Assembly: GCA_018266215.1 (NCBI GenBank)
Contig: JAFEAV010000023.1
Span: forward strand, 760 to 64,759
Direction of reading: 5' to 3'
Length of the DNA: 64,000 bases
Source: Cyanobacteria bacterium SZAS LIN-3
GTDB lineage: Bacteria > Cyanobacteriota > Vampirovibrionia > Obscuribacterales > Obscuribacteraceae
The number at the start of each line of letters is the position of its first letter. The first letter of the stretch is position 1. Under the pieces are notes generated by a model. That model did not search any database. It was not told where the DNA came from and was given only the letters and a program-made list of their open reading frames with translations. A program made the translations under genes and the position numbers. This document shows positions 13,591 to 53,445 of the stretch, piece after piece.

Positions 13591-13925
13591 CTGATGCCTG
13601 ATGCCAGCAGACTGCCGCCGGCTGCGGTCGCAAACCATGATGTAGCGACTGCCCAGGCCAGGGGGCCTGCTTCATGCAAGACCGCCACACCGAATATTGA
13701 GGACAGGGTCGTCAAAATTGCGATGCCGATCAAAGTGCGGATGGCGGACAGCTTCATAGCCAGGGTTATGCCAAAAGAGAGCAGACCCATCCAGGCAAAG
13801 AATATTGCCAGATGCGTGTCCCATACCATGTTGTAGGTGAAGAGTGCACCGAGCAGGCCCGCTTCTGCTGTGCCGAGGCACCACAGAGCGATTCCCATCG
13901 GGATTTGCCAGTTAATTGATGACAT
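13587..13925 (-). CDS. Small integral membrane protein (about 4 TM helices)
   Basis: 112 aa and strongly hydrophobic. The start overlaps the phosphatase gene end by 14 nt. Confidence 0.6.
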   Translation of the reverse strand: MSSINWQIPMGIALWCLGTAEAGLLGALFTYNMVWDTHLAIFFAWMGLLSFGITLAMKLSAIRTLIGIAILTTLSSIFGVAVLHEAGPLAWAVATSWFATAAGGSLLASGIR

Positions 13926-14619
13926 GGTGGCTTCCTCTATGAAAGTTTTGAAGAGGCGCTTTTTCGTGCGCCGTAGATAGATAGAGCACTTGTTTCAGCA
14001 GTTCATAGTCGCTCGGTTGTCTTTGCCCGCGCAGTTGGAAAACGGCTTCGACTTGCTCGTATGTTTCCACCGCACGGTCGTTATACCTGCTTCGGATTGC
14101 CGCTATCGGATCCGGAGTTTCTTTCCTTGACTCAAGCAGTGCCGCAAGACTGGCCAGAACAGTGCCTGTTCGGCCCAGACCCCCGTCGCAAAAGATGAGG
14201 ATGCGAGCACCTTGCCTGAGCTCGGCTACGATTTCTTCCAGACAGTAGCGGAAGTTGTTGCATACGCCCCCGAAATCGCGCATTGGCACCGCCAGGATCT
14301 GATAGCGTTTGCCGGAGCCGAAGGCCATATGCTGAGTCAGCGGGACCAGCAGGTCGTAGCCTTCGAGATCGCGAGCCGTGAGATACATGCCGCCGGCTGC
14401 CCAGACTTGGTAATCGCCGATTGATACTGCTTTTGGTTTGACGGCCGGGCTGAAGTGTCTGCGCTTTGCCAGGTAGGTGCGCAGTTCATCATCGAGGGCG
14501 GAGTCAGAGGGGAGGTCTGCGATCTTGCCGTCAATTTCCTCTCTTCCGATTGCAAACAAACCGGCAAGTGGAGCCATGCACGCCGCCATTGCCAGACAAA
14601 AAATAGATTGAACATTCAT
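13912..14619 (-). CDS. Cys-based protein-tyrosine/dual-specificity phosphatase-fold protein (CX5R) with an N-terminal signal or anchor
   Basis: Start at MNVQSIFCLAMAACMAPLAG. Its ATG shares one nucleotide with the upstream TGA (TGATG). P-loop ILIFCDGGLGRTGTV matches the C-X5-R-(S/T) signature. Confidence 0.65.
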   Translation of the reverse strand: MNVQSIFCLAMAACMAPLAGLFAIGREEIDGKIADLPSDSALDDELRTYLAKRRHFSPAVKPKAVSIGDYQVWAAGGMYLTARDLEGYDLLVPLTQHMAFGSGKRYQILAVPMRDFGGVCNNFRYCLEEIVAELRQGARILIFCDGGLGRTGTVLASLAALLESRKETPDPIAAIRSRYNDRAVETYEQVEAVFQLRGQRQPSDYELLKQVLYLSTAHEKAPLQNFHRGSHHVIN

Positions 14620-17159
14620 CAGAGTACTCCCTGGCCAGATTCGGCGTTTGAGTTGTTGTCGTTGCATCCGCCCCAGAGGCCGGCAATCAGTCCTTGTTCG
14701 TAAAGAGCCCTGACTTCAGGGTCTAAAGCTTTGTGGAGTGTCGTCAGTCGGGCGAATAGCTTATCGGTGCTGGAGATCGACTTCTTTGCGTCCAGTTGGT
14801 TCTGGAGCAGGTGTTCGTTTGCCTCAGCCATTCTGTGTTTGTTAAAAAGAACGCCTCCGTTGTGTTTGAGGTCAAAAACATGGTCGATATAAATCGAAGC
14901 CGGGACTCTTCCTGCCAGATACTCCCTGGGAGCCGCTGCAATTTGTGACCAGGGTCTGCCGCCAAAGCCGCTGCTCCAGGAGCTGTCGACAAAGGCGTGG
15001 GAAGCCAGGCGGAAGAACTCCTCCTGATAGCTGCAGTTCCTTGCCGCCAGCTTTTTCAATTTTTCCATTGTTGATTCGCCGCAATTACGCAGCTCGCCCA
15101 GGGCTTGCAGTTGCTTGACCTGGGGATTGTTCTTGCGGGCGTAATCCGGCAGCAAGAACAGTTCGGTGTAGACCGCATAAGTCAGGTAGCAGGTCAGTAT
15201 TTCTGCCAGTTGGCTTTCCACGGCTTTCAGTTTTGTGGTAATGCGGTCCTTCAAGGGATGACTTTTGCTGTTGGCCGCCATCGAGCTGAGCAGGTAAAAG
15301 TCGTTGTGCCATTGATTGATGTCCCATATTTGTTCCATCAGCGCCGGCAAGATAGCCGCATCGTGGATACGCAGTTCGGTGCGTTCCAGCCATTCTTTGA
15401 TCATCCGGGTATTGGCAGTAGCCTCGGCGTTTGCGATTGGAATCAGCCCGCGCACTACGATACCGGCGGCACCATCAACACTGACCTCTTGCCCCTCGCT
15501 GATAGTCTGACCGTCGCCAAAAGTCAGCTGATCGCCTTCTATGCGAAAATTGCAGCCCACAACGGCGGGAATATGCAGCCCTCGTGCTACTACCGCAGCG
15601 TGGCTGGTGGTGCCGCCACAGGATGTGATAATAGCTCTGGATGCGAGCATGGCCGGCAGATCGTCCGGGGATGTATCCATGCGCGCCAGGATCACGTCAA
15701 CATCAAAATCCGCCGCTTCCATCGCTTTTTCGATGCTGAAATACAGACGGCCGACGGCCACCTGTGGAGAGGCCGGAATGCCTTGCATATAGCCTTCCAC
15801 CAGAGCTGGTACGATCGCCTCCTGATCGAAGAATGTACAAGTGGTATCGTCGTCCAGAAAGCCGACGCTCATCAGTGCATCTTCTTCAATCCATTCGCCT
15901 TTTGCCACCTGGTTTACGGCAAAGTTGATTGCCGCTTCGCGAGAGCGTTTTGCACTGCGGACCTGTAGCAGATAGAGCACCCCGTCTTCAACAGTGAACT
16001 CAACGTCCACCATATCGCGATAGTGTCTGGCCAGCGTGTTGACGTGCGTCACAAGTTCGGCATAGACATCCGGCATGATCTCAGCTAACCCTTGCAATGA
16101 CAGAGGTGTTCTCACTCCGGCTACCACATCTTCGCCCTGGGCGTTGGCAAGAAATTCACCATAGAGCCCATCTTCCCCGGTAATCGGATTGGCGGAAAAT
16201 ACCACCCCCGTGCCGGAGTTGGCTCCCTTGTTGCCAAAAACCATGGCTTGCAGGATGACGGCAGTGCCCAGGTCGGCCGATATTTCTTCCTTCTTTCTGT
16301 AGGCGATTGCGCGTTCACTGTCCCAGGATTCCAGCACGGCCATGATGGATAAAGCCAGCTGTTCGTAGGGATTCTCCGGCATAGCCCGGCCGCAGCATTG
16401 GACAATAATTTTTTCAAACTGATCGCAAATCAGTTGCAGTTGATCTACGCTCAGCTCGCCGTCATTGTCCACGCCGCTGTGTTCCCTGGCCGTTTTCAGG
16501 CAGTTTTCAAACAGGCTGCGATCCGCGCCTAATACCGTGGTCCCAAACATTGCCAGGCAGCGGCGATACGAGTCCCAGGCAAAGCGTTCGCCCGCCCGTT
16601 GTCCCAGGCCGATTACAGAGTGACGATTGAGACCAACATTGAGAATGGTATCCATCATGCCGGGCATGCTCACTGGGGCACCGGAGCGCACTGAGAGTAA
16701 AAGCGGCTTGTCCTTGTTTCCGAAGGTCAAACCGCTTTGTCTCTCAAGCGACTCTATGGCCAGTGCGAGTTCTCGTGCGAGGGAGGCCGGCAATTTGCCT
16801 CTTGTGTTGAAATAGCGTGAGGCTGTTGTCAGCACTGTGGCGCCTGGGGTACCGGGAATGCCAAGTCTGGCCATTTCAGAGAGTCCCATGCCTTTGCCGC
16901 CACGAAGGTCAGGATCAAAAGAACCGAGGTGTCCTTCGGCAAAGTCGAAAACAAGACGGGGGGAAAGCAGACGGTCGGTGAAGTGGGACACTTTGATCCG
17001 CGCCAGCGGGAGTGAACCGATCAGACCGCGAGCGGCAAGTAGTTCCCGGTAAAGCACCGCGGCATGGCTGAGATTCGACTGAGGAGATTCATTCGTGGTG
17101 CTGAAGTCTGATGATTGCTCGGGCCAGTTAAGTGTAAATTGAGTTGCTGTAGCGTTCAT
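14619..17159 (-). CDS. Pyruvate-phosphate-dikinase-family enzyme with a non-canonical C-terminal domain
   Basis: Start at MNATATQ, with GGAG 6 nt upstream. PPDK N-terminal blocks GGKGMGLSEMARLGIP, MMDTILNVGLN, WDSYRRCLAMFG, GEFLANAQGEDVVAGVRTP and DVEFTVEDGVLYLLQVRSAKRS. Swivel domain TSPDDLPAM...GGTTSHAAVVARGLHIPAVVG. The last ~270 aa lack every PEP/pyruvate TIM-barrel block. Confidence 0.8.
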   Translation of the reverse strand: MNATATQFTLNWPEQSSDFSTTNESPQSNLSHAAVLYRELLAARGLIGSLPLARIKVSHFTDRLLSPRLVFDFAEGHLGSFDPDLRGGKGMGLSEMARLGIPGTPGATVLTTASRYFNTRGKLPASLARELALAIESLERQSGLTFGNKDKPLLLSVRSGAPVSMPGMMDTILNVGLNRHSVIGLGQRAGERFAWDSYRRCLAMFGTTVLGADRSLFENCLKTAREHSGVDNDGELSVDQLQLICDQFEKIIVQCCGRAMPENPYEQLALSIMAVLESWDSERAIAYRKKEEISADLGTAVILQAMVFGNKGANSGTGVVFSANPITGEDGLYGEFLANAQGEDVVAGVRTPLSLQGLAEIMPDVYAELVTHVNTLARHYRDMVDVEFTVEDGVLYLLQVRSAKRSREAAINFAVNQVAKGEWIEEDALMSVGFLDDDTTCTFFDQEAIVPALVEGYMQGIPASPQVAVGRLYFSIEKAMEAADFDVDVILARMDTSPDDLPAMLASRAIITSCGGTTSHAAVVARGLHIPAVVGCNFRIEGDQLTFGDGQTISEGQEVSVDGAAGIVVRGLIPIANAEATANTRMIKEWLERTELRIHDAAILPALMEQIWDINQWHNDFYLLSSMAANSKSHPLKDRITTKLKAVESQLAEILTCYLTYAVYTELFLLPDYARKNNPQVKQLQALGELRNCGESTMEKLKKLAARNCSYQEEFFRLASHAFVDSSWSSGFGGRPWSQIAAAPREYLAGRVPASIYIDHVFDLKHNGGVLFNKHRMAEANEHLLQNQLDAKKSISSTDKLFARLTTLHKALDPEVRALYEQGLIAGLWGGCNDNNSNAESGQGVL

Positions 17160-17697
17160 AGATAGCTCCGATTCCGATTGGAATGTTGAGTTCAAAAAAA
17201 TCGCCCAGGCAGATCTCATCTCGTCAGCCCGCGGGCGAACGAAAAAGGAGAGCGGTAGGCGGGAATGGATAAAAGGTGTTTTTTATGCCGGTTAAAGGAG
17301 AGGAAGTTGTTCTTCCATATTGGCCTTAACTAAACCCTTGTTGGCAAGTGCTATAGAACCCTGTATGGGCCTCGATTAGTGTTTTTCCCAGGACAATACT
17401 TGCCTCTGCTGAAACTGTCTCATTGCGCGGCGCGGAAGCGTGTCGTCGTCGCGACCCTATCGCATTGCCGGTGGTGTCAAATTTCATCACATAGATTGAG
17501 TTGTCCTGGCGCTATTTGTTAGAGCTGGGGGTATCCAATTCATTCCCTCTCCATCCGGCGCATTTCCTTAAACACTGCATACGTCGCTAACTCTCCGCTT
17601 TTTCCAAGCACCTGCCGGTGTCTGTGAGCGGGACTGTATCTGGATAATTTCGTCCTTCAACTTCGTCCATCAACCACCTACAAAAACAGGTATCCCA

Positions 17698-19632
17698 ATG
17701 GAAAAATCAAGAATGAGCTTTGCCCAGCTCTTGCTCAACGTAATATTTATCATCCCCGTCACACTCCGCGTCAGCGGTAAATGGTTGTGCCATCGTGCAT
17801 ACGGTACCGGAGGCTGGGCCAGGACATTACCGGTCGCACTGGTCGGTCTTGCCCTGGGCGTGATGACCGGTTGGCAGGTCGCGGATAGAATTGCCTTCGA
17901 GTTTGCCCCCGGCGCTTTCAGCTGGCTGCTGAATTCCTCCAGCTGGTTTTTAACTTTCCTGCTCGTCGCCTCGCTTGTGTACACGCATGTCTGGTCGGCG
18001 ATCTATTATTTTGCGCTGCGCCATTTGTGGGACTTGTGGGAGCGAGCATGGCGCGCCTATGAACGTATCTGGAAGAGCGTACTGCTCCCGGGCCTTGAGG
18101 CTCTCGTGAAAATCATAAAAGTGGCCCCGGGGTCTACTTATCTCTGGTCGCATCTGGAGGATGAAAACGGTATTCGCTCAAAAGGAATACGGTTGCTGGA
18201 GGTTTTGTGTATCATTGCCATTTTCGGCGCCGGCGGTTATTCAGGATATCTGACCTATGAGCTGGTCTCCGCTTCAGGGCTGCAATTTGTTGGTCTTAGT
18301 GCGGTAGCTACAACTCTGGCTGTTATCGTTGCCATTTCCCTGGTGGGTCTGATCAGCCCCTTGTTTGACAGTAAGGCCTATGCATCGGTGGCTGCTGCCA
18401 GCGCCATGAGCACCTCCGTACTGTTCTTCTTGCCGCCGGCTTTTCTCGGACAGACTTTTGCCATCAAAGCTCTGGCCCTGTTCGCCATGTTCGTTTTTGG
18501 CGTAGCCTATACGGTGCCGGCGCTTGTAATCTTCATGCAAGGCGGATTTATGAAGAAGGTTCTGACTCAATGGAGGCGCATGCTTGATACCGCATACGGT
18601 GAGGAAAGCGATAAGGATTATCAGCGGTTCTTCCAGCACGCCCTCAATATCGCGCTGTCATTTGTCCTGACCTGGATTGCTTACAGCATCAGTATCAGCA
18701 TTGGATTCGCCTACTGGCTTGCCTTCCTGGTCGCTGCCCTGACCCTGGTCTATACCTATGCCGAGGGATTCCAGAAACATCTGGGTCAATCAAAGGCAAA
18801 TACCGAGCTGGCCTTCGTGTCCATCCTCGCGGTTTCCTATCTCAGCTATCAGGCGGTAACAGCATCTTCCGCCGCCGTCGCCTTTGGTCTTTCCCTGGCT
18901 GCCTTTCTGGCTACGGCTCTGATTGCGTATCCTTTCTTCTACATCGCCCTGCGTTTTGTCACCAGACGATTCGTCACCTCTGCCGGCTATGCTCTGGAGA
19001 AAGTACATGCCCGCTTGTCCAGCCGCGTGGTTGCCGCTTTTGCCTGGCTGCGCCGGAAGCAGGATGAAGCCTTCAATGATAGATCCGAGTTTGCCGGTCT
19101 TTTTGGCCATCTCCTCAACGTCGCCATTCTGGCGGCGGCACTGACCCTGTGGATCCCCTCTGCGGCCGCTTATGCGACCAGCAACATTTTCTTTGAGATA
19201 GCGATTTTCGCTTTCGTCTCAGTTAACGGCTTTATCCTATTAGGACGGTTATTCTCGTCCTACAGCGGTGCTACTCTGGGCTTCTTCACTGGCCTGTCCA
19301 CCTTCGCGGCGGTAGCCTATTTCGTCAATGATATGAGCGGGTCCCTGACCATCGCATTGTTGGTGGCCGGCGTTGCCAGCGGTATCGTAGGCGGTGTCGT
19401 CGCCCCGCTCTTCTATTTGCAGGTGGCCCGGCTGCTCGCTCCTTTTACGGCTACTCTGGCGCCGCCTGTTAATCGTGTTTTCAACATTTTGTGGTCTGCT
19501 TATAGGGACCTCTGGATTGCATTCGGGCGTCACTTTGCAGTCGTTCTGGCATTGCTTCAGCCCTTGTTTGCTGCGGTGGCGCGTACCTGGCAAACCGTTG
19601 CCGCGCAGTTGACTCGCCTGTTCGGCGCTTAA
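17698..19632 (+). CDS. Large polytopic membrane protein, function unknown
   Basis: 644 aa, with many hydrophobic helices throughout. Transcribed divergently from the dikinase-like operon. Confidence 0.65.
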   Translation: MEKSRMSFAQLLLNVIFIIPVTLRVSGKWLCHRAYGTGGWARTLPVALVGLALGVMTGWQVADRIAFEFAPGAFSWLLNSSSWFLTFLLVASLVYTHVWSAIYYFALRHLWDLWERAWRAYERIWKSVLLPGLEALVKIIKVAPGSTYLWSHLEDENGIRSKGIRLLEVLCIIAIFGAGGYSGYLTYELVSASGLQFVGLSAVATTLAVIVAISLVGLISPLFDSKAYASVAAASAMSTSVLFFLPPAFLGQTFAIKALALFAMFVFGVAYTVPALVIFMQGGFMKKVLTQWRRMLDTAYGEESDKDYQRFFQHALNIALSFVLTWIAYSISISIGFAYWLAFLVAALTLVYTYAEGFQKHLGQSKANTELAFVSILAVSYLSYQAVTASSAAVAFGLSLAAFLATALIAYPFFYIALRFVTRRFVTSAGYALEKVHARLSSRVVAAFAWLRRKQDEAFNDRSEFAGLFGHLLNVAILAAALTLWIPSAAAYATSNIFFEIAIFAFVSVNGFILLGRLFSSYSGATLGFFTGLSTFAAVAYFVNDMSGSLTIALLVAGVASGIVGGVVAPLFYLQVARLLAPFTATLAPPVNRVFNILWSAYRDLWIAFGRHFAVVLALLQPLFAAVARTWQTVAAQLTRLFGA

Positions 19633-19662: not shown

Positions 19663-20406
19663 ATGCAACAGATAACCGAAGAGTATCTAACTATGAAAAA
19701 CGACACAATAACCCATTCCGCCATAAACGCTTTTATGGCCGACCTGGCTGATCAGTACCGTCACAGAAACGTCATCAACGATGCCGAGCGGAAGATATTT
19801 ATCGATTTCTTCGACGCCTTATTCACGTCCGAGATTGAGACTTTGAAGCGTCTGGTCGAAGGCTATGGGAGTGCTCCGGAAGACGGCATCATGATTTTTG
19901 CCGCGCTGTGCCGCGCAATCGGTGTCATCCTCAACGATTACAGCAACTCATACAGCTGGACTGAGGGTAAGTTGTATCTGGGAACTGTGACCAGGGCGGC
20001 ACAGTCCAGGCCTTATTCTAAGTTTACCGGTGAAGAACGGCACAGTCTGGTGCTTTTCGTCGATGGCCGTGCGCCGACCGCTTTTAAGAACTGTCGAGAT
20101 GACCGACTGCGGGGTGCAGCTGATGCGCAGAGCCATGTCGTATGTGCCTCCGAGGCTCTGGAGCAGTTTGCTCGCGTCCTGGCCGAATCTGCTCTCAGTC
20201 TTATCGCCGCTGGGCGTTCTGATGATTTCACGCCTTTCGAAATCCCTCCACACATGCTCAAGCACATTATCGGACAGCGGCAGTACGCCATCAGCAAACG
20301 CACCTTTGCCGCCGAATTCGCAAGAGAGCAAGCTGCTCGCGGCAAGATCAGTTTCTTCTGGTGGTGCTTACAGAACAAAGGCAAGATTGAACAATTTGGC
20401 CTTTAG
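19663..20406 (+). CDS. Hypothetical protein
   Basis: 247-aa ORF 30 bp after the membrane protein gene, followed by a strong terminator. Confidence 0.55.
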   Translation: MQQITEEYLTMKNDTITHSAINAFMADLADQYRHRNVINDAERKIFIDFFDALFTSEIETLKRLVEGYGSAPEDGIMIFAALCRAIGVILNDYSNSYSWTEGKLYLGTVTRAAQSRPYSKFTGEERHSLVLFVDGRAPTAFKNCRDDRLRGAADAQSHVVCASEALEQFARVLAESALSLIAAGRSDDFTPFEIPPHMLKHIIGQRQYAISKRTFAAEFAREQAARGKISFFWWCLQNKGKIEQFGL

Positions 20407-23184: not shown

Positions 23185-25359
23185 GTGACAAATCGGGACG
23201 AGTCGGAGCAAAACAGGCCTGGGCGGCAGCCGGATCCGGCGGCTACCTGGAGTACTTATCACTTCCTGGCCGCTGATCCGACTCGAGTTTCGAGTCAGTC
23301 GCAGACTGCTTCTCTGCCTACGGGTAACGGCCGCTGCCAGGTCTATGCGCCCGGGGACGTAGTCGACAATACCTATCGACTTTTGTCTTTGATCGGCAGT
23401 GGCGGGATGGGTGTTGTTTTTCATTGCCAGCATGTCATCCTGGGTAAGGAGTATGCGCTCAAGCTTTTGTCGTCGGATAATCTTACGGTTGAGAGCTGGT
23501 CACGCTTTCAATCTGAGGCCAAGGCCCTGGCGCGTCTCCATCACTCCGGTGTTGTCGGCATTCACAACATGGGTATCGATAAAAATCAGTGCCCCTATTA
23601 CGTCATGGATCTGCTCTCCGGCAGCTCACTGGCTCAGCTTGTACGAAAAGAGCGTCGCATATCGGTCAAGCGGGCGCTGAATATTTTCATTCAGTTGGCT
23701 GAGGCCCTGGATGCCGCGCATCAGCAGGGGATCATCCACCGCGACATCAAACCATCCAACATTATGGTCGTTGAAGGTTCGGCCGGTGAATCAGCCAAAG
23801 TAGTCGATTTTGGTATTGCCAGACTCTCGAACAGGGGCCTGGACCGTCAGTTTGAGACGATCGCCGGCAGTGTTTTCGGTACGCCGTTTTATATGAGTCC
23901 GGAGCAAGGACTGGGGCGCACAGTTGATGAGCGCTCGGATATTTATTCTCTTGGTTGTGCCTTCTTTGAGGCTCTGACAGGCGTGCCGCCGCTGTGCGGG
24001 GAAAGTGCCATGGAGACTGTCATGCTTCATCAAACAGAACCGGCGCCGGGTCTTTCCGAGGTCTACACAAAGGGCGATTTTGATCCCGGTCTGGAGGCCG
24101 CCGTTGCCAAAATGCTGGCCAAGGATCCGCAGGAGCGCTATCAGTCGATGAAGCAGGTGGCTCATGATTTGCGGCGCATTCAGGAAGGTAAGGCGGTGGG
24201 TTCTCTGCGAACGGTGCCTCCCGCCGCTGATGCCTATGAAAAGGCGATCGGACAAAACTTCAGGGAGAAGCTGATTCCGGCCTTGCAGGCCAGAGATGTC
24301 GAGCCTCCGCCGAAAGCGCGTTTCAGTTTCAGTCCGGCAGTAATTACCGCCGGCGCTGCGCTGGCCGTCGGCATGGGCATAGTATGCTTCTGGGTGTTTG
24401 CTCAGGGCCGTATCGGTGGCACTACAGCTGCCGTGGCCGCCGCCGGTGCGCCGACTGAAGCGAGCGAAGACGCCTGGGACCGTGGGGCTTCTGATCCGTT
24501 GTTTCCCGAGTTTCCTGAGTTTTTGCGGAAGGTGCCGAAGATGAGCACCGACATCGTCAGGGGCGGCGTTGTCGTTTCAAGGCAATTTGAATTTCCCTCT
24601 TTTGACTGCAAGTTCGGATATTTGCAGGCCGGGTCGGCCCAGCCCAGGAAGGCCATAGGTAAGATTGATGTGCCGCCCGATCAGCCGGTAACGGTCTATA
24701 TGCAGTGTCTCTGCACGCCCTTTCCCACCATCTGCAAAAAATTCGGTGATGATGCTTTGACCGGTCTTGAAATAGTGACCTTCGAGGTGCCTACGGTGGT
24801 GAAGAAAATCACGGGTTGGACCAGGCTCAGACATCTTTCATTTTTTAACAGCATTGAGCGTGTTGAAGGTATGGACTGTTCCACTGTTTATCCCGAGGAC
24901 ATTCCGGTAATCGATCAATTGACGAATCTGCGTTCTCTGGGGCTTTGCGGCGAGACCGTATCGGAACACTATCGCAATGGGCTGCAGTTGAAAGGTTCCG
25001 ACATTACGGGGATGAGACTATTGAGTCGTCTGGATACGCTCATGCTCAAGGAGATTGCCGATATTCGCCCGGTTCTGACGGCTATCTGGCTGCACCCCAA
25101 TATCAAAACGCTCTATCTGGATAATCTGGACATTGATGACTTGGACATCGAGATTCTGTCAAAGTCCACTGGTTTGGAGAACATTACGATTTTTCAGTGT
25201 AAAAAAGTGACGCCGCAGGCGGTGGCAAGTTTTAGTAAGATGAAAAACCTCAAGAGTCTGCATATGGACGATAATTGGTCGCCGGAAGTGCGGGCGGCCT
25301 TTGCCGCTAAGGTTAAAGCCTATCAATACGAGAGCTACAAAAAGAATACCCATCACTGA
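23185..25359 (+). CDS. Hanks-type Ser/Thr protein kinase with one TM helix and a C-terminal leucine-rich repeat domain
   Basis: 724 aa with a GTG start. Kinase motifs GSGGMGVVF, ALK, HRDIKPSNIMV, DFGIA and GTPFYMSPEQ. TM helix ITAGAALAVGMGIVCFWVFA. C-terminal RNI-like LRRs (LTNLRSLGL, IKTLYLDNL, LKSLHMDDN). Confidence 0.85.
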   Translation: MTNRDESEQNRPGRQPDPAATWSTYHFLAADPTRVSSQSQTASLPTGNGRCQVYAPGDVVDNTYRLLSLIGSGGMGVVFHCQHVILGKEYALKLLSSDNLTVESWSRFQSEAKALARLHHSGVVGIHNMGIDKNQCPYYVMDLLSGSSLAQLVRKERRISVKRALNIFIQLAEALDAAHQQGIIHRDIKPSNIMVVEGSAGESAKVVDFGIARLSNRGLDRQFETIAGSVFGTPFYMSPEQGLGRTVDERSDIYSLGCAFFEALTGVPPLCGESAMETVMLHQTEPAPGLSEVYTKGDFDPGLEAAVAKMLAKDPQERYQSMKQVAHDLRRIQEGKAVGSLRTVPPAADAYEKAIGQNFREKLIPALQARDVEPPPKARFSFSPAVITAGAALAVGMGIVCFWVFAQGRIGGTTAAVAAAGAPTEASEDAWDRGASDPLFPEFPEFLRKVPKMSTDIVRGGVVVSRQFEFPSFDCKFGYLQAGSAQPRKAIGKIDVPPDQPVTVYMQCLCTPFPTICKKFGDDALTGLEIVTFEVPTVVKKITGWTRLRHLSFFNSIERVEGMDCSTVYPEDIPVIDQLTNLRSLGLCGETVSEHYRNGLQLKGSDITGMRLLSRLDTLMLKEIADIRPVLTAIWLHPNIKTLYLDNLDIDDLDIEILSKSTGLENITIFQCKKVTPQAVASFSKMKNLKSLHMDDNWSPEVRAAFAAKVKAYQYESYKKNTHH

Positions 25360-30597: not shown

Positions 30598-33500
30598 TTA
30601 TCTGGCGCTGCTGCGGACGGGGGCGAAATTACCGGGCAGTGAGTTGTCTGTGCGGTGGTCGCGACGCATGAAATCTACAACCTGGGTGCGGATTTCGCGG
30701 GCCAGCTCCATCTGGCTGAGCTGAGTTGGGGTGGGTGTTTCGCCCGGCTTGATGTATGTGAGCGGCTGATTGTAGAAGGGGATATGGTCCCGGGCCGGAT
30801 CCAGGCCCTTGCTGTTTTTGAGCCAGGCGTCCATGTATGCTTTGAGGCTGCCGTTTTGTCTGTCGGTGACGCGGTTGAGGGCGGCCAGGTTCTGGTCCGC
30901 TATGCGCTGTCCCTGCGGGGTTAGCACGGTGTAGGCATCTTTGAAGCTGGCGTTGACCGAGTCGATTGAATTCCAGACAGTGGCGTCGGGGAAGAATGTT
31001 TCCGGTCCGCGGATAGCGACGATTTTGCTGGCACCGCCAGTGGTGCTGTAGTTGTCGGCGCCGTCGCCGTCGATGAGATTCTGGGCGATGCGTTTGCGGG
31101 ACAGCTGGACTTCTTTTTCAGCTGCGCTGAGAGATTTGAAGCGAGGATCGAAGGCCGGTTCGTAGGGAAGCACCCAGCGGTCGGTGCCGGAGAGGGCAAA
31201 TACTTTTTGCTCATCCGGGCTGAACTTGACCTGTTGCAGGCCATCGGCACCGGTGGTGCGCGGGGCGTCGGCGACATTGGCCAGCTGACGGATGCGCTTG
31301 ACGCCGTCGGGGCCGACTTCGGTCATGCCGTCCAGTACTGCTCTCATGTGATCGGCTTCCTGCGCCCCAATTTTGCCGGACTTGACCATGCCGTCCAGGG
31401 TGCCTGCTATTTTCATGTAATAGAGCTGGCCCATAAACTTGGGCGGTGCGATCTGGTGGGCGAGAATGGCTTCGATTATGCGCTCGGTGCGATCCTGGGG
31501 AAAGCCTTGCAGGCGCAGGCTGTGGTCGGCAGCCAGGGCGCCGTCCAGGTGGTGGGTGTGGAAATTAGGCACGGTGCCCTCGGGGGCAGGGGCGGAAAAT
31601 TTGACAGAGTCCGAATACATCGAAGCCAGCAGACTGTCTTCCAGGTCGTTGGCGCTCAGGCCTTTGGCTCGGCCTGCTTCCAACACTTTGGCTATTTCGC
31701 CCTGGGTGTGGATCCAGTTTACTTCCGGATCGGGATGCATACGGTCGCCCAGTCTGTAGGATGCCAGATGCTCTCTCACCAGGCCGAGGTTGCGCAGAAC
31801 GGTTTCTTTCTGTGTGGCGCTCAGATTTTTGTCCTGCATCAAACTCTCGTAGGCGCTGGTTGGTTTGCCGTCCGGACCTATAGCTTTGACGTCTTGCATT
31901 TCGCGCTGTACCTGGGCGCGCAGGGCTGTTCCTTCGCTGTCGCTAAGTGGTGCAAATTTGCTTTCGATTATTTCTCTGCGTGCCCGGGTTTCGGCTAGTC
32001 GGCGGCCATCAATATCGAGCGGCTCACCGTGGGTGGGCGGTCTTTCGCTAAGGGGCGACCGCTCTGCAATCGCCGGTCTTTCCATAGTCGCCGGTGCTTC
32101 GGCCCGGGCCAATCTTGTCGCGGCGCCGATGGTGCCGCTTATTACCCCGGCCAGCACGGCACCGGTTGCGCCACGCACTGCAGCCGTCTCGCCGATGCGG
32201 GCAAGATTTTCGCCAAATGATTTGTTGCCGTCCCATTTCGTCACGCCCTCTACTGTACCAGAGGCCGCTCCGCCCGCTGCTCCCGCGGCACTGTTGAGGG
32301 CTACTTCTGTACCGTAGGAGAAGGCAGCGCGCTCACCGGCGGCGAGGGTTTTGCCGCCCAGGCCCACCACGCGGGCGACCTGGGCCGGCCCGACCAGCAT
32401 GACCGCGGCATTGACTGCGCCGGTGGCGCCATCGGACAGCACCTGGCCGGCGCTGAAGCTGTAATCATCGCCCGCAATGGCTGCTTTGGTGCCTATTTTT
32501 ACCGCTGCTCCGCCGGCGCCGACTGCACCGAGCAGGGTCAAGCTGGCTCCGCCGGTGAAGGCGGCTCCGCCCACGCCTGCAACTATCAGGGTGCCGTCGA
32601 CCAAGGCATCGGCGGCTCCGTTTTTGGATTCTTTTAGCAGGTCCAGAGTGTGGTTCAGATTTTGCTGGTGGGCTTGCTGTCTTTCGGCTGTCAGTGTCGT
32701 ATTGGCGGCGGCGGCGCGAGCCATATCGGCGGCATACTGGTTGAGTTCATCGGTGCTCATGTCGGAGGTGCCGTCCCAGATGTTGCGCACGATGCTGCGA
32801 CCAATGCCGTCATTGCTTTTGTATTCTCTGTCGCGGGCGCTGTTGAAGGCTTCCCTGGCGTCTCCAGGCGCCGCCGGAGTAGGCTCTGAATTGCCTTTAG
32901 ATGCTGCGGCCGGTGCATTGTAGGTGCCTTTGATCTCGCCGTCCCATTTTGCCAGGTCGGCTTTGTTGCCGGCTGATTGCAGGGCTTCATGAATCTGACG
33001 ATAGTAGGTCAGGTCGGCCAGATCCTGCGCGCTGTGGGCGCCATTTTTTACCGCCTCTTCGCCGCGGGTGTATTGGGCCTTCTGCTCCGGGCTCATGCGG
33101 CTCAATGCGTGTTCAATGGCCTCGCGGTTGGAGGAAAAGATACCGGTGTTGTCGCGTATTTGAGTCTGCAGGCTCAGTCGGCCGCCGTTTACATAGTCCA
33201 TGGCGTGACGCACGTCGGCGTTTGAAAAAATGCCTGCGAAGGCTTCTTTTACACGGGCTTCACCGCCGGAGGCCAGGAATTTTTGTCTCGCTTCGGGGTT
33301 AGCATCGCGGAAGGCTTCTTCGAACATGTCCAGGTTGCCGGCACGCGTGCCAATCTCGGCCAGAGTCAGCGAATCTTCCGAACCGCGCCGGTCGGCGCCC
33401 TTGAGATAGACGCCGAGGGCCTGTCTGGTCTCGGTTGAAAGCTTGCTCTCGGCCATTAGAGACTCTTTCAGACCCTTGCCGTAAAGTGCTTTGTATTCTC

Positions 33501-33852
33501 TGTCGAGGGCGGCGATTTGCGTGGAGTTAAGGGTGGCGACGGTGTCACGCAGGTCCTTCTCTATGTTGTGCCTGGAGCGTCCGGTCCATTCATGCAACTC
33601 GGACAGACCGTCGTGCACCCGTCTGGCATCGCCGCTCGGGCGCTCCGCGCTAATGGTGGCGGCCGGCAGCAGGCCCCTTGTCTCCAGGGCGTGATTGGCG
33701 TGGCTGAGATCGCGTCCAATGACCGCACGCTGCAGCAGAATTTGCTGGTCTTGTAATGCCTGGCGCATATTCTCGCCGGCTAGACTGTTTGGTTCAGTTC
33801 TTTCTCTGTTTGCGTGGGCGAGGTTTTCAAACTGATTGCTGGCCATAATCAT
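30598..33852 (-). CDS. Very large multi-domain protein: annexin-like repeats, a Gly/Ala-rich hydrophobic core and a large C-terminal domain
   Basis: 1084 aa with no signal peptide. LNSTQIAALDREYKALYGKGLKESLMAESKLS matches the annexin repeat core. Residues ~415-585 are G/A/V-rich. The C-terminal domain has a degenerate HD-like pattern (IHTQGEIAKV...SMYSDSVKF...FHTHHLDG...AILAHQ). Confidence 0.7.
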   Translation of the reverse strand: MIMASNQFENLAHANRERTEPNSLAGENMRQALQDQQILLQRAVIGRDLSHANHALETRGLLPAATISAERPSGDARRVHDGLSELHEWTGRSRHNIEKDLRDTVATLNSTQIAALDREYKALYGKGLKESLMAESKLSTETRQALGVYLKGADRRGSEDSLTLAEIGTRAGNLDMFEEAFRDANPEARQKFLASGGEARVKEAFAGIFSNADVRHAMDYVNGGRLSLQTQIRDNTGIFSSNREAIEHALSRMSPEQKAQYTRGEEAVKNGAHSAQDLADLTYYRQIHEALQSAGNKADLAKWDGEIKGTYNAPAAASKGNSEPTPAAPGDAREAFNSARDREYKSNDGIGRSIVRNIWDGTSDMSTDELNQYAADMARAAAANTTLTAERQQAHQQNLNHTLDLLKESKNGAADALVDGTLIVAGVGGAAFTGGASLTLLGAVGAGGAAVKIGTKAAIAGDDYSFSAGQVLSDGATGAVNAAVMLVGPAQVARVVGLGGKTLAAGERAAFSYGTEVALNSAAGAAGGAASGTVEGVTKWDGNKSFGENLARIGETAAVRGATGAVLAGVISGTIGAATRLARAEAPATMERPAIAERSPLSERPPTHGEPLDIDGRRLAETRARREIIESKFAPLSDSEGTALRAQVQREMQDVKAIGPDGKPTSAYESLMQDKNLSATQKETVLRNLGLVREHLASYRLGDRMHPDPEVNWIHTQGEIAKVLEAGRAKGLSANDLEDSLLASMYSDSVKFSAPAPEGTVPNFHTHHLDGALAADHSLRLQGFPQDRTERIIEAILAHQIAPPKFMGQLYYMKIAGTLDGMVKSGKIGAQEADHMRAVLDGMTEVGPDGVKRIRQLANVADAPRTTGADGLQQVKFSPDEQKVFALSGTDRWVLPYEPAFDPRFKSLSAAEKEVQLSRKRIAQNLIDGDGADNYSTTGGASKIVAIRGPETFFPDATVWNSIDSVNASFKDAYTVLTPQGQRIADQNLAALNRVTDRQNGSLKAYMDAWLKNSKGLDPARDHIPFYNQPLTYIKPGETPTPTQLSQMELAREIRTQVVDFMRRDHRTDNSLPGNFAPVRSSAR

Positions 33853-50060: not shown

Positions 50061-50666
50061 CTAAATGGCCATCGCCTGCGCCAGCAGCTTGTCGAAGGTT
50101 CCCTGCCTGTCGCAATCCGTTTTGGGCGGATTGTAGGGCAGTGCTTCGGTGTAGCTGCGAGCGAAATCCGAGGGCACAGCCTGGTCCAGACGCTTCCGCC
50201 AGACCCGCAGCAATTGCTGGCCGCACTTGTCGGGCAGCGGAATGCGGCGCGTGCGAAACTTGCTGGCAAAGCGTCCCATCCAGCCATTGCGGCGAACGTT
50301 CTCGAAGATTTCGACGATCTGCGGAACATCGCTGTAGCCCTCGGGCGAGATGATTACCGGAGCCACCTCATAGCGAAGCGGCATGGTTGTGGCATCCCAG
50401 CTGATCTGACTGCGATCGGCGTAGGCAGTCGGCGTCACCGGCGGTGTGGCGCAGACCAGCTTGAATCCGGCCTTTCCACCCTGAACAAAAGCGATGCGCG
50501 CGCCGGCCAACTCATGCACCTTTTTCGGGTGCATGAGATTGGTCTTGTGACAGCCGGTCAGGCCGAAGCTGCCGAATTCCCAGAAGGGATCCGAGCGCAT
50601 TTCAGTCGGCCTTTCCATGTGCGGCTGCCTGAGCAGCGCAACAATAACAGTGGCGTTATTCGGCAT
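50061..50666 (-). CDS. Hypothetical protein with a conserved-looking DPFWEFGSFGLTGCH block
   Basis: 201-aa ORF 37 bp downstream of the methyltransferase fusion gene. GC3-rich like its neighbours. Confidence 0.55.
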   Translation of the reverse strand: MPNNATVIVALLRQPHMERPTEMRSDPFWEFGSFGLTGCHKTNLMHPKKVHELAGARIAFVQGGKAGFKLVCATPPVTPTAYADRSQISWDATTMPLRYEVAPVIISPEGYSDVPQIVEIFENVRRNGWMGRFASKFRTRRIPLPDKCGQQLLRVWRKRLDQAVPSDFARSYTEALPYNPPKTDCDRQGTFDKLLAQAMAI

Positions 50667-50703
50667 TTTTCGTCCTCCTTCACTTCTTGTTCTTGTTCGT
50701 TGT

Positions 50704-52080
50704 TCAGACTTTCTCCGCCACGATTACACCGGTGGTGTCGTCGAAGGGCAGTGTTTCGCCGGGCTTGCCGTCACTGTCGGCGAAGAGCCAGACGTGGCCG
50801 TTGTAGCGGTTTTTCTCAATCCAGGGATTGAGATAGCTGCTGCAAGCGACCATGCGATAACCGATGGCTGTGAGCTCTCGAGCCCATTCATCGGTCGTCC
50901 AGACGCCAAACTCCTCGTTCACCTCCATGGCCCAGTTGGTCACGTAGTCCTTCTTGGAGAGGAATTCGTTGGCCTCGTGCAGGGTCATGCGGAAGTGTGC
51001 GACGCCGTCGAAGATCTGCTCTTCGTAGACGACGCCGGGCTTTGCCGATTTGCCTTTGAACTCGCGGGCAAACTTGCGGAAGCGCTCTTCCAGCTCCTCG
51101 CGGGTGTTGGTCAGGGCCAGACGAATCTGGTCGCGGTCGTAACCGTTGTAGGAGTAGACCTCGTGCATCACCGACGAGAAGATGGCCGTCGACACCGAAC
51201 CGTCAGCGAAGCGCTTGTGGATGATGTTGCCCTTCACCACGGTGACGTTGTGGTTGGGGTAGTGCTGGCTGTCCGACATGTGCAGCAGCTCGCGCGACAG
51301 ATCCATGCCGACGATTTCCGCACGGGGGAAGAGGTTGGAGAGATGAATCAGGAGCGTGCCGGTGCCGCAGCCCTTGTCCACGATCTTGCCGGCCGTGGGC
51401 TGGATGTGCGGGCAGATGTCCTGGATTTTGACGGCCAGGCTGGCGTCCATGCCCTGGCTGTAGACGGTGAAGTCGCGGCCGTGGGAGAGTTCGCCTTCCT
51501 CGTTGACGAGTACGTCGTCGAAAAGCTCGACGATGCGCTCGACGATTCCCCGGGCCTCGTAAACCTTGCGCGTGGAGGCCGTGGCGATTTTGCGCCAGTC
51601 GCGTCCGCTGGCGATGGCCGCCAGAAGATCGACCGGCAGGGCGCCGCTGGTAGAGGGGGCGACGGCGCGGTATCCACCCCGGGCGAAGTGCTTGTTCACG
51701 TCCGGGTTGGCCGAGACGAGCACGGTGTTGCTCGCGTCGAGCAGGGTTTCACCGGCCGATTCGCGCTTCACCACCTCGATGATGTGCGAGGTCCAGGCGT
51801 CGGCGTCGGTGGCCGATTCGTTGATGTCGAGCGCGGTGTGCACCTCGTAGGGGCGGCGCAGGGCACGGGCCAGGCCTTCCACCACTTGCACGCGTTCATC
51901 GGCGTAGAGGGGGTGGCGCTTGGTGGCGCCCTGCCCCTGAGCGGTGATGACAAAGACGAGCTTGCCATCACCTGCGCTCTTCAGCGCCTGACGCAGAGCC
52001 CGCTCCTGGTCTTTCGTGACGCCGTGCCAGCGTCCGACCAGGAGCAGGAATGCTGCTTGTTTTGCTTGCTTTTTGACCAT
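50704..52080 (-). CDS. Fusion protein: Rossmann-like N-terminal domain (degenerate HIGH nucleotidyltransferase pattern), class I SAM-dependent methyltransferase, and a C-terminal extension
   Basis: Start placed at MVKKQAKQ. N-terminal LLLVGRWHGVTKDQERAL resembles the GRFQPFHxGH context, but both His residues are replaced. Methyltransferase motif I is IVDKGCGTGTLL, followed by VGMDLS. Confidence 0.6.
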   Translation of the reverse strand: MVKKQAKQAAFLLLVGRWHGVTKDQERALRQALKSAGDGKLVFVITAQGQGATKRHPLYADERVQVVEGLARALRRPYEVHTALDINESATDADAWTSHIIEVVKRESAGETLLDASNTVLVSANPDVNKHFARGGYRAVAPSTSGALPVDLLAAIASGRDWRKIATASTRKVYEARGIVERIVELFDDVLVNEEGELSHGRDFTVYSQGMDASLAVKIQDICPHIQPTAGKIVDKGCGTGTLLIHLSNLFPRAEIVGMDLSRELLHMSDSQHYPNHNVTVVKGNIIHKRFADGSVSTAIFSSVMHEVYSYNGYDRDQIRLALTNTREELEERFRKFAREFKGKSAKPGVVYEEQIFDGVAHFRMTLHEANEFLSKKDYVTNWAMEVNEEFGVWTTDEWARELTAIGYRMVACSSYLNPWIEKNRYNGHVWLFADSDGKPGETLPFDDTTGVIVAEKV

Positions 52081-52143
52081 AGTAGATTCTCCTGTGTGGT
52101 AAATCACATCCCGGCGGATGACCACACAGGTCATTTACCGGGC

Positions 52144-53445
52144 TTACTTAACGGTGCCTTTCCTGGGCGCCGCCTTGCGTCGGGGCTTCACCATGTTGGC
52201 GATGAGCGCGTCGGCGAAGGCGGAAGTGCCAAGCGTGGTGGCCTTCTTCATGTAGCGAGCCAGGTCACCGGTGACGGTGCGGGCGCGAATGGTCTTCTCG
52301 ACCGACCTGGTGACGATGGTGGCGGCCTCTTCCCAGCCCAGATAGTCGAGCATCATGATGCCCGAGAGCAGGAGGGAGCAGGGATTGGCGATGCCCTTAC
52401 CGGCGATGTCCGGGGCAGTGCCGTGCGTGGCCTCGAAGAGGGCGCAGTGCACGCCGATGTTGGCGCCCGGAGCGATACCCAGACCACCCACCTGAGCGGC
52501 GGCGGCATCGGACAGGTAGTCACCGTTGAGGTTCATCGTGGCGATCACCGAAAATGTGCTGGACTTGCAGAGCAGCTCGAAGAAGGTGGCGTCGGCGATG
52601 CGGTGATTGAGCAGGATCTTGCCCTCGGGCAGCTTGCCGCCGTGCTTCTTCCAGAGGTCGTCTTCCGAGACCATGATGTCGCCGAACTCTTCGGCCGCCA
52701 GTTCCAGACCCCACTTGAGGAAAGCACCCTCGGTGTACTTCTGGATGTTGCCCTTGTGGACGATCGTCACCACCTTGCGGTCGTGCTCGATGGCGTACTG
52801 GATGGCGGCGCGGACGATGCGGCGGGAACCGAAGCGCGACATCGGCTTGATGCCGATACCGGAGTCTTCGGGGATCTTGTGACCGTGCTTGGCCGCCAGG
52901 GCGATGAACTCGAGGGCGGCCGGTGTGCCCATTTCGAATTCGATGCCGGCATAGACGTCTTCGACGTTCTCGCGGAAGATGACCACGTCCAGGTCCTGCG
53001 GGCGTTTGACGACGGAGGGAACACCGCCGTAGTAGCGCACCGGTCGGACGCAGCTGAAGAGGTCGAAGCGCTGGCGCATGGTCACGTTGAGACTGCGCAT
53101 GCCGCCGCCGGTGGGGGTGCCCAGGGGGCCCTTGATCGCCACGCCGAAGTGGTCGATGGCCTCCAGGGTGCCGTCCGGCAGTGAATTGCCGAAGCTGGCC
53201 CGGGCCTTTTCGCCGGCGAAGATTTCGAACCAGACGATGCGGCGGTTGGCGCCGTAGGCCTTGCTCACAGCGGCGTCGATGACGCGGCGTGTGGCGTCCG
53301 AGATTTCGGGCCCGATGCCGTCACCCTCGATGAAGGGGATGATGGGGCGCGCGGGCGTGATGGGCTTGCCGTCCTTGAACTGGATGACTTCGCCCTCGGC
53401 CGGAATCTCGACACCGTTGAACGTTCTCACTTTGGATGTCGTCAT
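52144..53445 (-). CDS. icd: NADP-dependent isocitrate dehydrogenase (homodimeric prokaryotic type)
   Basis: Start at MTTSKV, with an AAGGAAA Shine-Dalgarno sequence. IDH blocks [61 protein letters not shown] and [13 protein letters not shown]. Confidence 0.9.

Follow-up and report, generated by a model that had tools for sequence, protein, structure and literature searches.

The 64,000-nt window analysed here (contig JAFEAV010000023.1 of Cyanobacteria bacterium SZAS LIN-3, positions 760–64,759) carries on its minus strand a gene (nt 14619–17159) whose product joins the front part of pyruvate phosphate dikinase (PPDK) to an unrelated, all-alpha C-terminal domain (C-domain), and directly downstream of it a gene for a cysteine phosphatase. 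Judged from the sequence, we consider it reasonably probable that the two genes are a kinase/phosphatase cassette in which a PPDK-derived, His-swivel dikinase serves an acceptor other than pyruvate. A dikinase re-targeted in this way had been proposed in the initial annotation of the gene, and it is supported as the most economical reading because the ATP-grasp and His-swivel residues are intact and invariant in 55 homologues, to which is added a new, conserved domain.

Results

Residues are numbered on the longest open reading frame (ORF; nt 14619–17219, 866 aa), and 20 should be subtracted for the 846-aa product that starts at an internal ATG (M21, the second in frame; nt 17159). The shorter product is the likelier one, because a Shine–Dalgarno-like GGAG lies 6 nt 5′ of the ATG at 17159 and the closest homologue (P0001) begins at the equivalent point. 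A 287-aa ORF runs antisense within the gene (nt 15105–15968, plus strand) and is weakly similar to the antisense strand of another homologue (L082); conservation of the coding strand makes it an artefact, not a gene.

Residues ~86–615 are collinear with PPDK through the ATP-grasp domain, first linker, His swivel and second linker. The only Pfam matches of the protein are PPDK_N (E = 7e-37) and PEP-utilizers (E = 1.8e-21). NCBIfam TIGR01828 (PPDK) matches at E = 1.9e-163 over profile positions 2–531 of 865 only, and the score of 545.6 bits is below the equivalog cutoff of 843.45, so that by whole-protein score the protein is not assigned to PPDK. The PPDKs of the PDB all align at their own residues 3–530 only. 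As the PPDK match ends after the second linker (TIGR01828 position 531, PDB residue 530), the foreign domain starts exactly at the barrel boundary. Over the N-terminal 530 residues, identity to genuine PPDKs is 40–47%, and for the collinear domains it is about 43–47% among the genome hits. The chain begins with an extension that has no PPDK counterpart (residues 1–85, nt 16965–17219; the PPDK alignment begins at residue ~88), of which residues 1–45 are predicted to be disordered (pLDDT <50 at residues 1–6 and 16–45 in the AlphaFold model). The ATP-grasp nucleotide-binding domain and first linker follow (residues ~86–470, nt 15810–16964; Pfam PPDK_N and alignment to 1kbl/9pzl), and then the phosphohistidine swivel domain (residues ~471–592, nt 15444–15809; Pfam PEP-utilizers and alignment to the PPDK central domain), which matches 2fm4 in Foldseek (TMt 0.81).

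The catalytic residues are intact. In residue alignments to 1kbl/9pzl, with codons verified, K109, R178, E407, Q419 and R421 correspond to K22, R92, E323, Q335 and R337 of PPDK, while T538 and H540 correspond to T453 and H455 of the Clostridium symbiosum enzyme. The swivel motif GGTTSHAAVVARG aligns to PPDK H455 and retains the T-x-H that the PPDK swivel requires. Among 55 full-length fused homologues, the catalytic histidine H540 (codon at nt 15600–15602; H520 when numbered from the internal ATG) is invariant, as are K109, R178, E407, Q419 and R421. A full-length AlphaFold (AF2) model built from the 55-sequence alignment (pLDDT 87, pTM 0.73) returned PPDK 1kbl as its top Foldseek match (best superposition 1kbl/1dik) with a template modelling (TM) score of 0.58, which roughly equals the PPDK-like fraction of the chain; K22A and R337A mutant PPDK structures are also among the structural matches. 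By its sequence, then, the ATP/His machinery is intact and the protein is a member of the His-swivel dikinase superfamily, which includes PPDK, phosphoenolpyruvate (PEP) synthase, glucan water dikinase (GWD), rifampicin phosphotransferase (RPH) and HpeHI. Because its N-terminal part matches PPDK (E = 1.9e-163) far better than it matches PEP synthase (7e-31) or, in the swivel alone, RPH (3e-13), the alignments suggest a recent derivation from PPDK, with the partial reactions using ATP and inorganic phosphate (Pi) probably retained.

No PEP/pyruvate barrel, which PPDK requires at its C-terminus, follows the swivel. Pfam PEP-utilizers_C matches neither the window protein nor an Obscuribacter homologue nor the phage dikinase described below, and the barrel halves of five genuine PPDKs have no match in any frame of the 64-kb window (tblastn, best E 0.12). 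A frameshifted ppdK, with barrel motifs in another frame downstream, is rejected because this search gave only noise in every frame. The initial annotation had described the first ~580 residues as PPDK-like block by block, with the TIM barrel absent and a helical domain in its place. All of this is borne out, the first by Pfam, TIGR01828 and the PDB alignments and the rest by Pfam, the point at which TIGR01828 stops, the tblastn search and the confident all-alpha model described next; every peptide block quoted at that time is found in the minus-strand translation, and PPDK_N and PEP-utilizers match where PEP-utilizers_C does not.

In place of the barrel, the second linker helix and the all-alpha C-domain occupy residues 593–849 (~260 aa, nt 14673–15443). 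The C-domain has no match in Pfam, NCBIfam or PADLOC. Since a word-index search with the domain alone found nothing, an exhaustive phmmer search was made against 1.84 billion cluster representatives (clusters at 50% identity), and this returned 1008 relatives at E ≤ 1e-3, 143 of them at E ≤ 1e-10. Among the best 150, 109 are fused like the window protein and the rest are stand-alone or multi-copy forms; in full-length relatives the C-domain is 40–53% identical. Most clusters of the family are singletons from metagenomes, and the fused homologues are labelled PPDK by JGI. The domain corresponds to PHROG 20946 (‘unknown function’, E = 1.2e-15), and all 51 matches of a profile search are ‘hypothetical’ proteins without a Pfam entry. 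An AlphaFold (AF2) model of the C-domain (pLDDT 89) is a 13-helix bundle with one non-helical loop. Foldseek found no match to this fold in the PDB (best E 0.67, TM ≤ 0.2) and, in BFVD, four unnamed phage homologues and nothing else; a profile search of PDB sequences gave nothing meaningful. On the strength of the model, the C-domain is a new fold and an unnamed family. HEPN, Fic/Doc, HPt, HD and terpene-synthase-like motifs were considered and rejected, as motif order and the absent fold matches disagree with them.

Conservation within the C-domain was scored over 74 sequences that included the phage stand-alone forms. Eight positions are invariant (G754, W757, D779, L784, H786, N787, K794 and L809) and eight more are at least 90% conserved (Y678, E686, F743, G753, I760, A761, G789 and F792); the window protein keeps all of them, and with them the signature GGxxWxxIA ... 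D-x4-L-x-H-N-x-G-x2-F-x-K with its upstream Y and E. The most conserved core, GGRPWSQIA...IDHVFDLKHNGGVLFNKH (residues 753–795, nt 14835–14963), includes all of the invariant positions but L809. In the predicted structure GGxxW caps a helix, D..L.HN.G..F.K forms the only long loop, and most of the invariant polar residues are concentrated in one glycine-rich loop and one helix N-terminus. A set of E, D, H-N and K next to the glycine-rich start of a helix resembles a site for phosphoryl transfer or phosphate binding more than it does part of a purely structural domain.

The core recurs in stand-alone and in giant phage proteins. The giant proteins, from phages and metagenomes (P0088, 2263 aa; P0099, 1247 aa; P0130, 1926 aa; and those encoded at the viral loci L106:2717–12634, L108:5444–17068, L116:5444–17254 and L126:7778–13609), carry one to four copies of the core without a dikinase and usually without a phosphatase gene nearby. 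No Pfam domain at all was found in them.

The phosphatase gene (nt 13912–14619, minus strand) specifies a DUSP23/SsoPTP-like protein of 235 aa from its probable ATG; the longest ORF starts at nt 14667 (nt 13912–14667, 251 aa). This ATG and the stop codon of the dikinase share the sequence TGATG (nt 14617–14621) and, as read from this layout, the gene is translationally coupled to the dikinase. The P-loop C-D-G-G-L-G-R (CX5R; nt 14170–14190) lies downstream of the general acid D131 (251-aa numbering), and both C160-DGGLG-R166 and D131 are conserved in 83–85% of 83 partner sequences. Pfam scores of the window partner are just or well under the gathering thresholds (Tc-R-P 26.7 vs 27, PTP-SAK 24 vs 27, DSPc 20.1 vs 33.5), and its phage orthologue is above threshold for PTP-SAK (39.5). 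The nearest solved relatives in the PDB are ShufPTP, TkPTP, SsoPTP and human DUSP23 (E = 3e-8 to 5e-5). With SsoPTP, TkPTP and DUSP23 the partner shares the CX5R(T) P-loop, the general-acid Asp and a downstream AVETYEQ..AVFQ motif; it differs from them in an N-terminal extension of ~100 aa, which is hydrophobic in the window protein, and in the family signature C-x-G-G-H-G-R. The protein begins with a hydrophobic stretch of ~25 residues, MNVQSIFCLAMAACMAPLAGLFAIG, which may anchor it in the membrane or act as a signal peptide; among the 83 partners, only the phosphatase of its closest relative (locus L128) also has an N-terminal hydrophobic peak.

A census of 129 loci (the window, one Obscuribacter metagenome-assembled genome, 47 viral loci and 80 metagenome loci) shows how closely the two genes are linked. 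Of 39 non-redundant fused loci, 34 have a phosphatase gene of this type (PTP) at most 1.5 kb downstream and on the same strand. Of 48 stand-alone loci, 37 have it downstream and a further four have it upstream only, and only one of 14 giant multi-copy proteins has it nearby. Dikinase, C-domain and PTP are joined in a single chain in one protein (P0108, 935 aa, 13 cluster members), and several bacterial loci carry a second, PTP-like paralogue without the catalytic Cys. Because the family is nearly always encoded beside a cysteine phosphatase, its product probably phosphorylates some target. No conserved neighbour of the fused genes other than PTP was found in cellular loci, nor does the window share any synteny with its relatives beyond the two-gene cassette; a conserved ABC-transporter neighbour was considered and dropped, the similarity being that of generic ABC ATPases. 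The distribution and neighbourhood of the C-domain, suggested initially as a check, thus describe a large family common to bacteria and phages, in a cassette with a Cys-phosphatase.

The surroundings of the cassette in the window are ordinary chromosome, with genes for citrate synthase, a DEAD-box helicase, a histidine kinase, a Ser/Thr kinase, an ROK kinase, an acyltransferase and an ABC transporter. Given this setting, and as nothing else is conserved around the fused genes, the unit is, on sequence grounds, a mobile two-gene cassette. Divergent from the dikinase are ORFs of 644 aa (nt 17698–19632, plus strand) and 247 aa (nt 19663–20406, plus strand), which have no Pfam, NCBIfam or PADLOC match and are not conserved beside the cassette elsewhere. 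About 6 kb from the cassette lies a gene for a 724-aa Hanks-type Ser/Thr protein kinase (nt 23185–25359, plus strand; Pkinase, E = 1.7e-46), of which a 41%-identical homologue occurs near the cassette in one metagenome locus (L179), probably by coincidence. Two further ORFs, of 1084 aa (nt 30598–33852, minus strand) and 855 aa (nt 50617–53184, plus strand), have no Pfam match at E ≤ 1e-5 and are situated in the most GC-rich stretches of the window (0.58–0.61, compared with ~0.54 elsewhere).

Stand-alone C-domain proteins are present in 41 phage records and in many IMG/VR contigs. The records include ~80-kb Vibrio siphophages (VHS1, SIO-2, J26 and others), the Stenotrophomonas phages DLP3, DLP5 and Summit, the Rhizobium phages RHph_Y1_11 and RHph_TM16, and the Rhodobacter phage RcZahn. 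They represent a lineage of ~80–100 kb siphophages that carry one gene for the dikinase, another for the C-domain and two for phosphatases next to that of DNA polymerase A. The gene order is barrel-less dikinase (647–703 aa), two or three small ORFs (one faintly CsrA-like), PTP-a, C-domain protein, PTP-b, a conserved ORF of 240–290 aa, small ORFs, DNA polymerase A and portal, and the published gene table of DLP3 is consistent with it (PMC7326821). Between the window and J26, the dikinases are 40% identical, and the C-domain and PTP match at E = 6.5e-15 and 1.7e-5. A prophage of the same lineage is carried by a cultured bacterium, Hyphomicrobium sp. ghe19 (LR743509.1, nt 2499033–2520118; L213), where the order is dUTPase, ribonucleotide reductase (RNR), immediately followed by the split dikinase/PTP/C-domain module, then DNA polymerase A and portal; a 537-aa protein with an Acb1 (anti-CBASS) domain is encoded after the portal. 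DNA of DLP3 resists all 15 restriction enzymes tried (PMC7326821), a weak hint that the lineage modifies its DNA.

The phage dikinase has been treated as a PPDK auxiliary metabolic gene (AMG), and a TIM barrel has been described in it (PMC12038007); in at least one phage description this AMG is said to boost host glycolysis. Pfam finds no barrel in the phage protein. A survey of annotations (PP534163.1, loci L127 and L208; MT110073.1, DLP3; PHROG 17568) found the barrel-less dikinase labelled ‘pyruvate phosphate dikinase’ and handled as an AMG, the C-domain protein labelled ‘putative membrane protein’ and PTP-b ‘thymidylate synthase’. The conserved 284-aa ORF, labelled ‘pyruvate decarboxylase’, has no Pfam or PDB match (PHROG 25950). 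A Z-genome (PurZ/MazZ) link derived from the J26 annotation was dropped, as the ‘adenylosuccinate synthase’ is an ead/Ea22-like protein of a kind common in Stx phages.

About nine of the best 150 homologues, the window protein not among them, bear tails of 150–325 aa after the C-domain (P0015, P0063, P0070, P0075, P0076, P0079, P0102, P0114 and P0143; loci L142, L171, L173 and L179). The tails consist of His-rich sequence and of short motifs in varying order, each reminiscent of an active-site motif taken singly from some other family: [DE]xSGSM (vWA MIDAS), GxPGxGK[ST]..AKxLA (AAA+ Walker A), hhFIDE (Walker B) and HE[VI]xH (HExxH-like), together with HVFE, NAYF, GYVG and LGQM. The motifs stand much too close together to be parts of real domains. 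The MIDAS-like motif occurs ~0.6 times per 100,000 aa elsewhere and once in nearly every tail, and a search elsewhere in the loci for AAA+ or vWA ORFs that might explain the tails found none. Such tails may serve as (pseudo)substrates within the protein itself, as decoys or as regions that bind metal.

Discussion

In the mechanism that we favour, the ATP-grasp domain would use ATP, and probably Pi as PPDK does, to load a β-phosphate onto H540 of the swivel. The swivel would then bring its phosphoryl group to another active site, situated in the all-alpha C-domain and putatively made up of E686, D779, H786-N787 and K794 with the GGxxW helix cap, from which it would be passed to a non-pyruvate acceptor. 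The coupled Cys-phosphatase would act on the same substrate, removing either that phosphate, as SEX4 and LSF2 do for glucan water dikinase, or a neighbouring one, as in end-healing enzymes. Because the phosphatase would act on the substrate of the dikinase, the two genes would form a self-contained kinase/phosphatase cassette. The direction of phosphoryl flow is inferred, and so is the role of the C-domain as acceptor site, the latter from its position and pattern of conservation; alternatively, the domain may be a phospho-acceptor or a regulatory module.

Several observations weigh against this mechanism. A structural analogue that would reveal a binding pocket was absent from both the Foldseek and the PDB-sequence profile searches of the C-domain. 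The R688/H689 pair that is common after the invariant Glu in most members is absent from the window protein. The two to four copies of the core in giant phage proteins that have neither dikinase nor PTP fit a binding or acceptor module better than a swivel-dependent catalytic site. Lastly, if its hydrophobic N-terminus means that the phosphatase is exported, the two enzymes would share no cytoplasmic substrate.

The kind of acceptor can be narrowed only tentatively. A nucleotide or nucleic-acid end is one possible, though doubtful, candidate, considered because the phage module sits between dUTPase/RNR and DNA polymerase A and because a glycine-rich helix cap with invariant aromatics is compatible with the binding of a phosphate plus a ring. 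Protein Ser, Thr or Tyr is a candidate of similarly limited likelihood, considered because the partner is of a protein-phosphatase type (DUSP23/SsoPTP) and because some homologues have serine-rich motif tails. Atypical dual-specificity phosphatases (DSPs) frequently act on non-protein substrates. What remains falls to a glycan, a lipid or some other metabolite. More broadly, it is possible, if still short of probable, that dikinase, C-domain and Cys-phosphatase(s) together are a new phosphotransfer system of bacteria and of a deep lineage of ~80–100 kb siphophages, whose acceptor would be a macromolecule or nucleotide and not a central metabolite.

Other roles have been weighed for the same proteins. 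The C-domain may itself be the phospho-acceptor of a phosphorelay (for example, at the invariant H786 or Y678) or a docking or regulatory module, in a His autokinase comparable to VadK or to enzyme I of the phosphotransferase system (PTS), with the Cys-phosphatase resetting the acceptor or acting as an EIIB-like Cys~P carrier. We regard this as rather unlikely. It draws on VadK, a barrel-less PPDK derivative that is an autophosphorylating regulatory kinase (PMC13400623), on the phage C-domain being a separate protein between two CX5R phosphatase paralogues, on the repetition of the core in giant proteins without a dikinase, and on the protein phosphatases that are the nearest solved relatives of the partner. 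However, H786 is embedded in the invariant D..L.HN.G..F.K motif and accompanied by E686 and the GGxxW cap, which resembles a catalytic or ligand site and not an exposed phospho-acceptor; it is predicted to lie in a loop and not in an HPt-like helix, and the C-domain occupies the exact place of the catalytic barrel.

A role in conflict is compatible with the chemistry of the favoured mechanism, and we think it improbable as an account of the cassette. The pair would be toxin/antidote-like or anti-phage, the dikinase inactivating a target and the phosphatase serving as antidote, and the copies in phages would serve offence or counter-defence. Such a role would suit two translationally coupled genes that stand as a self-contained unit in genomic settings with nothing else in common, one of them next to hipBA, and it would also suit a family that is common to bacteria and phages and consists mostly of metagenome singletons; the Walker A, Walker B, MIDAS and HExxH-like tails of some members could be pseudo-substrates or decoys. 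Against it, PADLOC 2.0 gave no match for the dikinase, the phosphatase or four neighbours, the neighbours in the window (ROK kinase, acyltransferase, ABC transporter) are ordinary chromosomal genes, and the phage module belongs to the core of a nucleotide/replication block and not to an accessory island. It is very improbable that the gene is an ordinary ppdK, whether frameshifted, truncated, mis-assembled or with a barrel diverged past recognition, that still interconverts pyruvate and PEP: the N-terminal identity to true PPDKs, the PPDK labels that JGI and GenBank give to homologues and the ‘TIM barrel’ modelled in a phage homologue (PMC12038007) speak for it, but barrel similarity is missing from every frame and from Pfam searches of three family members, the domain is helical at high confidence and conserved in more than 1000 clusters, and the TIGR01828 score is far under the cutoff.

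Among known enzymes, PPDK (EC 2.7.9.1; 1KBL/1DIK of Clostridium symbiosum) is by far the closest match in sequence and structure, with ATP-grasp, both linkers and swivel collinear and the equivalents of K22, R92, E323, Q335, R337, T453 and H455 kept. It differs in having the TIM barrel (residues ~534–874), which the window protein replaces with an unrelated all-alpha domain of ~260 aa, and the window protein has a Cys-phosphatase partner. A PPDK derivative without a barrel is already known in VadK (Rv1127c; NF004531, ‘short PPDK’), which autophosphorylates on the swivel His and is a regulatory kinase (PMC13400623). The window protein narrowly misses this NCBIfam family (447.1 bits, cutoff 456). 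VadK stops after the swivel, whereas in the window protein another ~270 aa follow, with a conserved additional domain, and a phosphatase is its conserved partner; VadK-type proteins are found in actinobacteria, and the window family in uncultured bacteria and phages.

Swapping of the acceptor domain is a known evolutionary theme of the His-swivel dikinase superfamily. The initial annotation had pointed to earlier re-targeting by such exchange, and RPH (PMC4844700) and GWD (PMC13553574) are indeed precedents for swapped or split acceptor domains, as is HpeHI, a dikinase split into separate components (PMC12167813). RPH and HpeHI/phenylphosphate synthase resemble the window family in combining ATP-grasp and His swivel with an exchangeable substrate domain and in having separable polypeptides, as in the phage version. 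They are nevertheless distant in sequence (E = 1e-13 or weaker, swivel only) and have another domain order, and the RIF-binding-type domain of RPH is unrelated to the C-domain, with which Foldseek found no PDB entry.

The pairing with a phosphatase has a parallel in glucan metabolism, where glucan and phosphoglucan water dikinases (GWD/PWD) and the DSP-type glucan phosphatases SEX4, LSF2 and laforin, which are CX5R enzymes, form a cycle on the same substrate. To our knowledge, GWD with its glucan phosphatase is the only dikinase of the superfamily that cycles with a dual-specificity phosphatase. Its cycle is the best functional analogy for the cassette, and its mechanism has been described (PMC13553574). 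The window protein differs from GWD in that it lacks carbohydrate-binding modules and has a PPDK-like N-terminal part; the genes are adjacent and prokaryotic or viral, and a glycan substrate is not indicated.

Full-text searches of the literature on dikinases, phages, phosphatases and defence found no description of the dikinase/C-domain/phosphatase module. What is new here is the acceptor domain (a new fold and an unnamed family by the predicted structure), the conserved pairing with a Cys-phosphatase, and the distribution in uncultured bacteria and a phage lineage. The superfamily is small, and each new acceptor domain has meant new biology: C4 photosynthesis, starch turnover, rifampicin resistance, aromatic catabolism and the virulence of Mycobacterium tuberculosis. 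The present family adds a large branch (more than 1000 clusters at 50% identity) whose acceptor domain has no relative that Pfam, NCBIfam or searches of PDB sequences and folds could detect, and whose cassette is small and self-contained. If the acceptor is protein, the enzyme would be a candidate for the first dikinase of its superfamily to act on proteins, and the Walker-A, MIDAS and HExxH-like tails of some members would be built-in (pseudo)substrates; if it is a nucleotide or a DNA or RNA end, the module would be a candidate for a new phage phosphorylation pathway beside DNA polymerase A. In either case, the ‘PPDK auxiliary metabolic gene’ of vibriophages would be a mis-assignment. Identification of the acceptor would correct the PPDK annotations of these phages, probably uncover a function new to phages within their nucleotide/replication block, and add a substrate class and a fold to an enzyme family that is mechanistically well studied.

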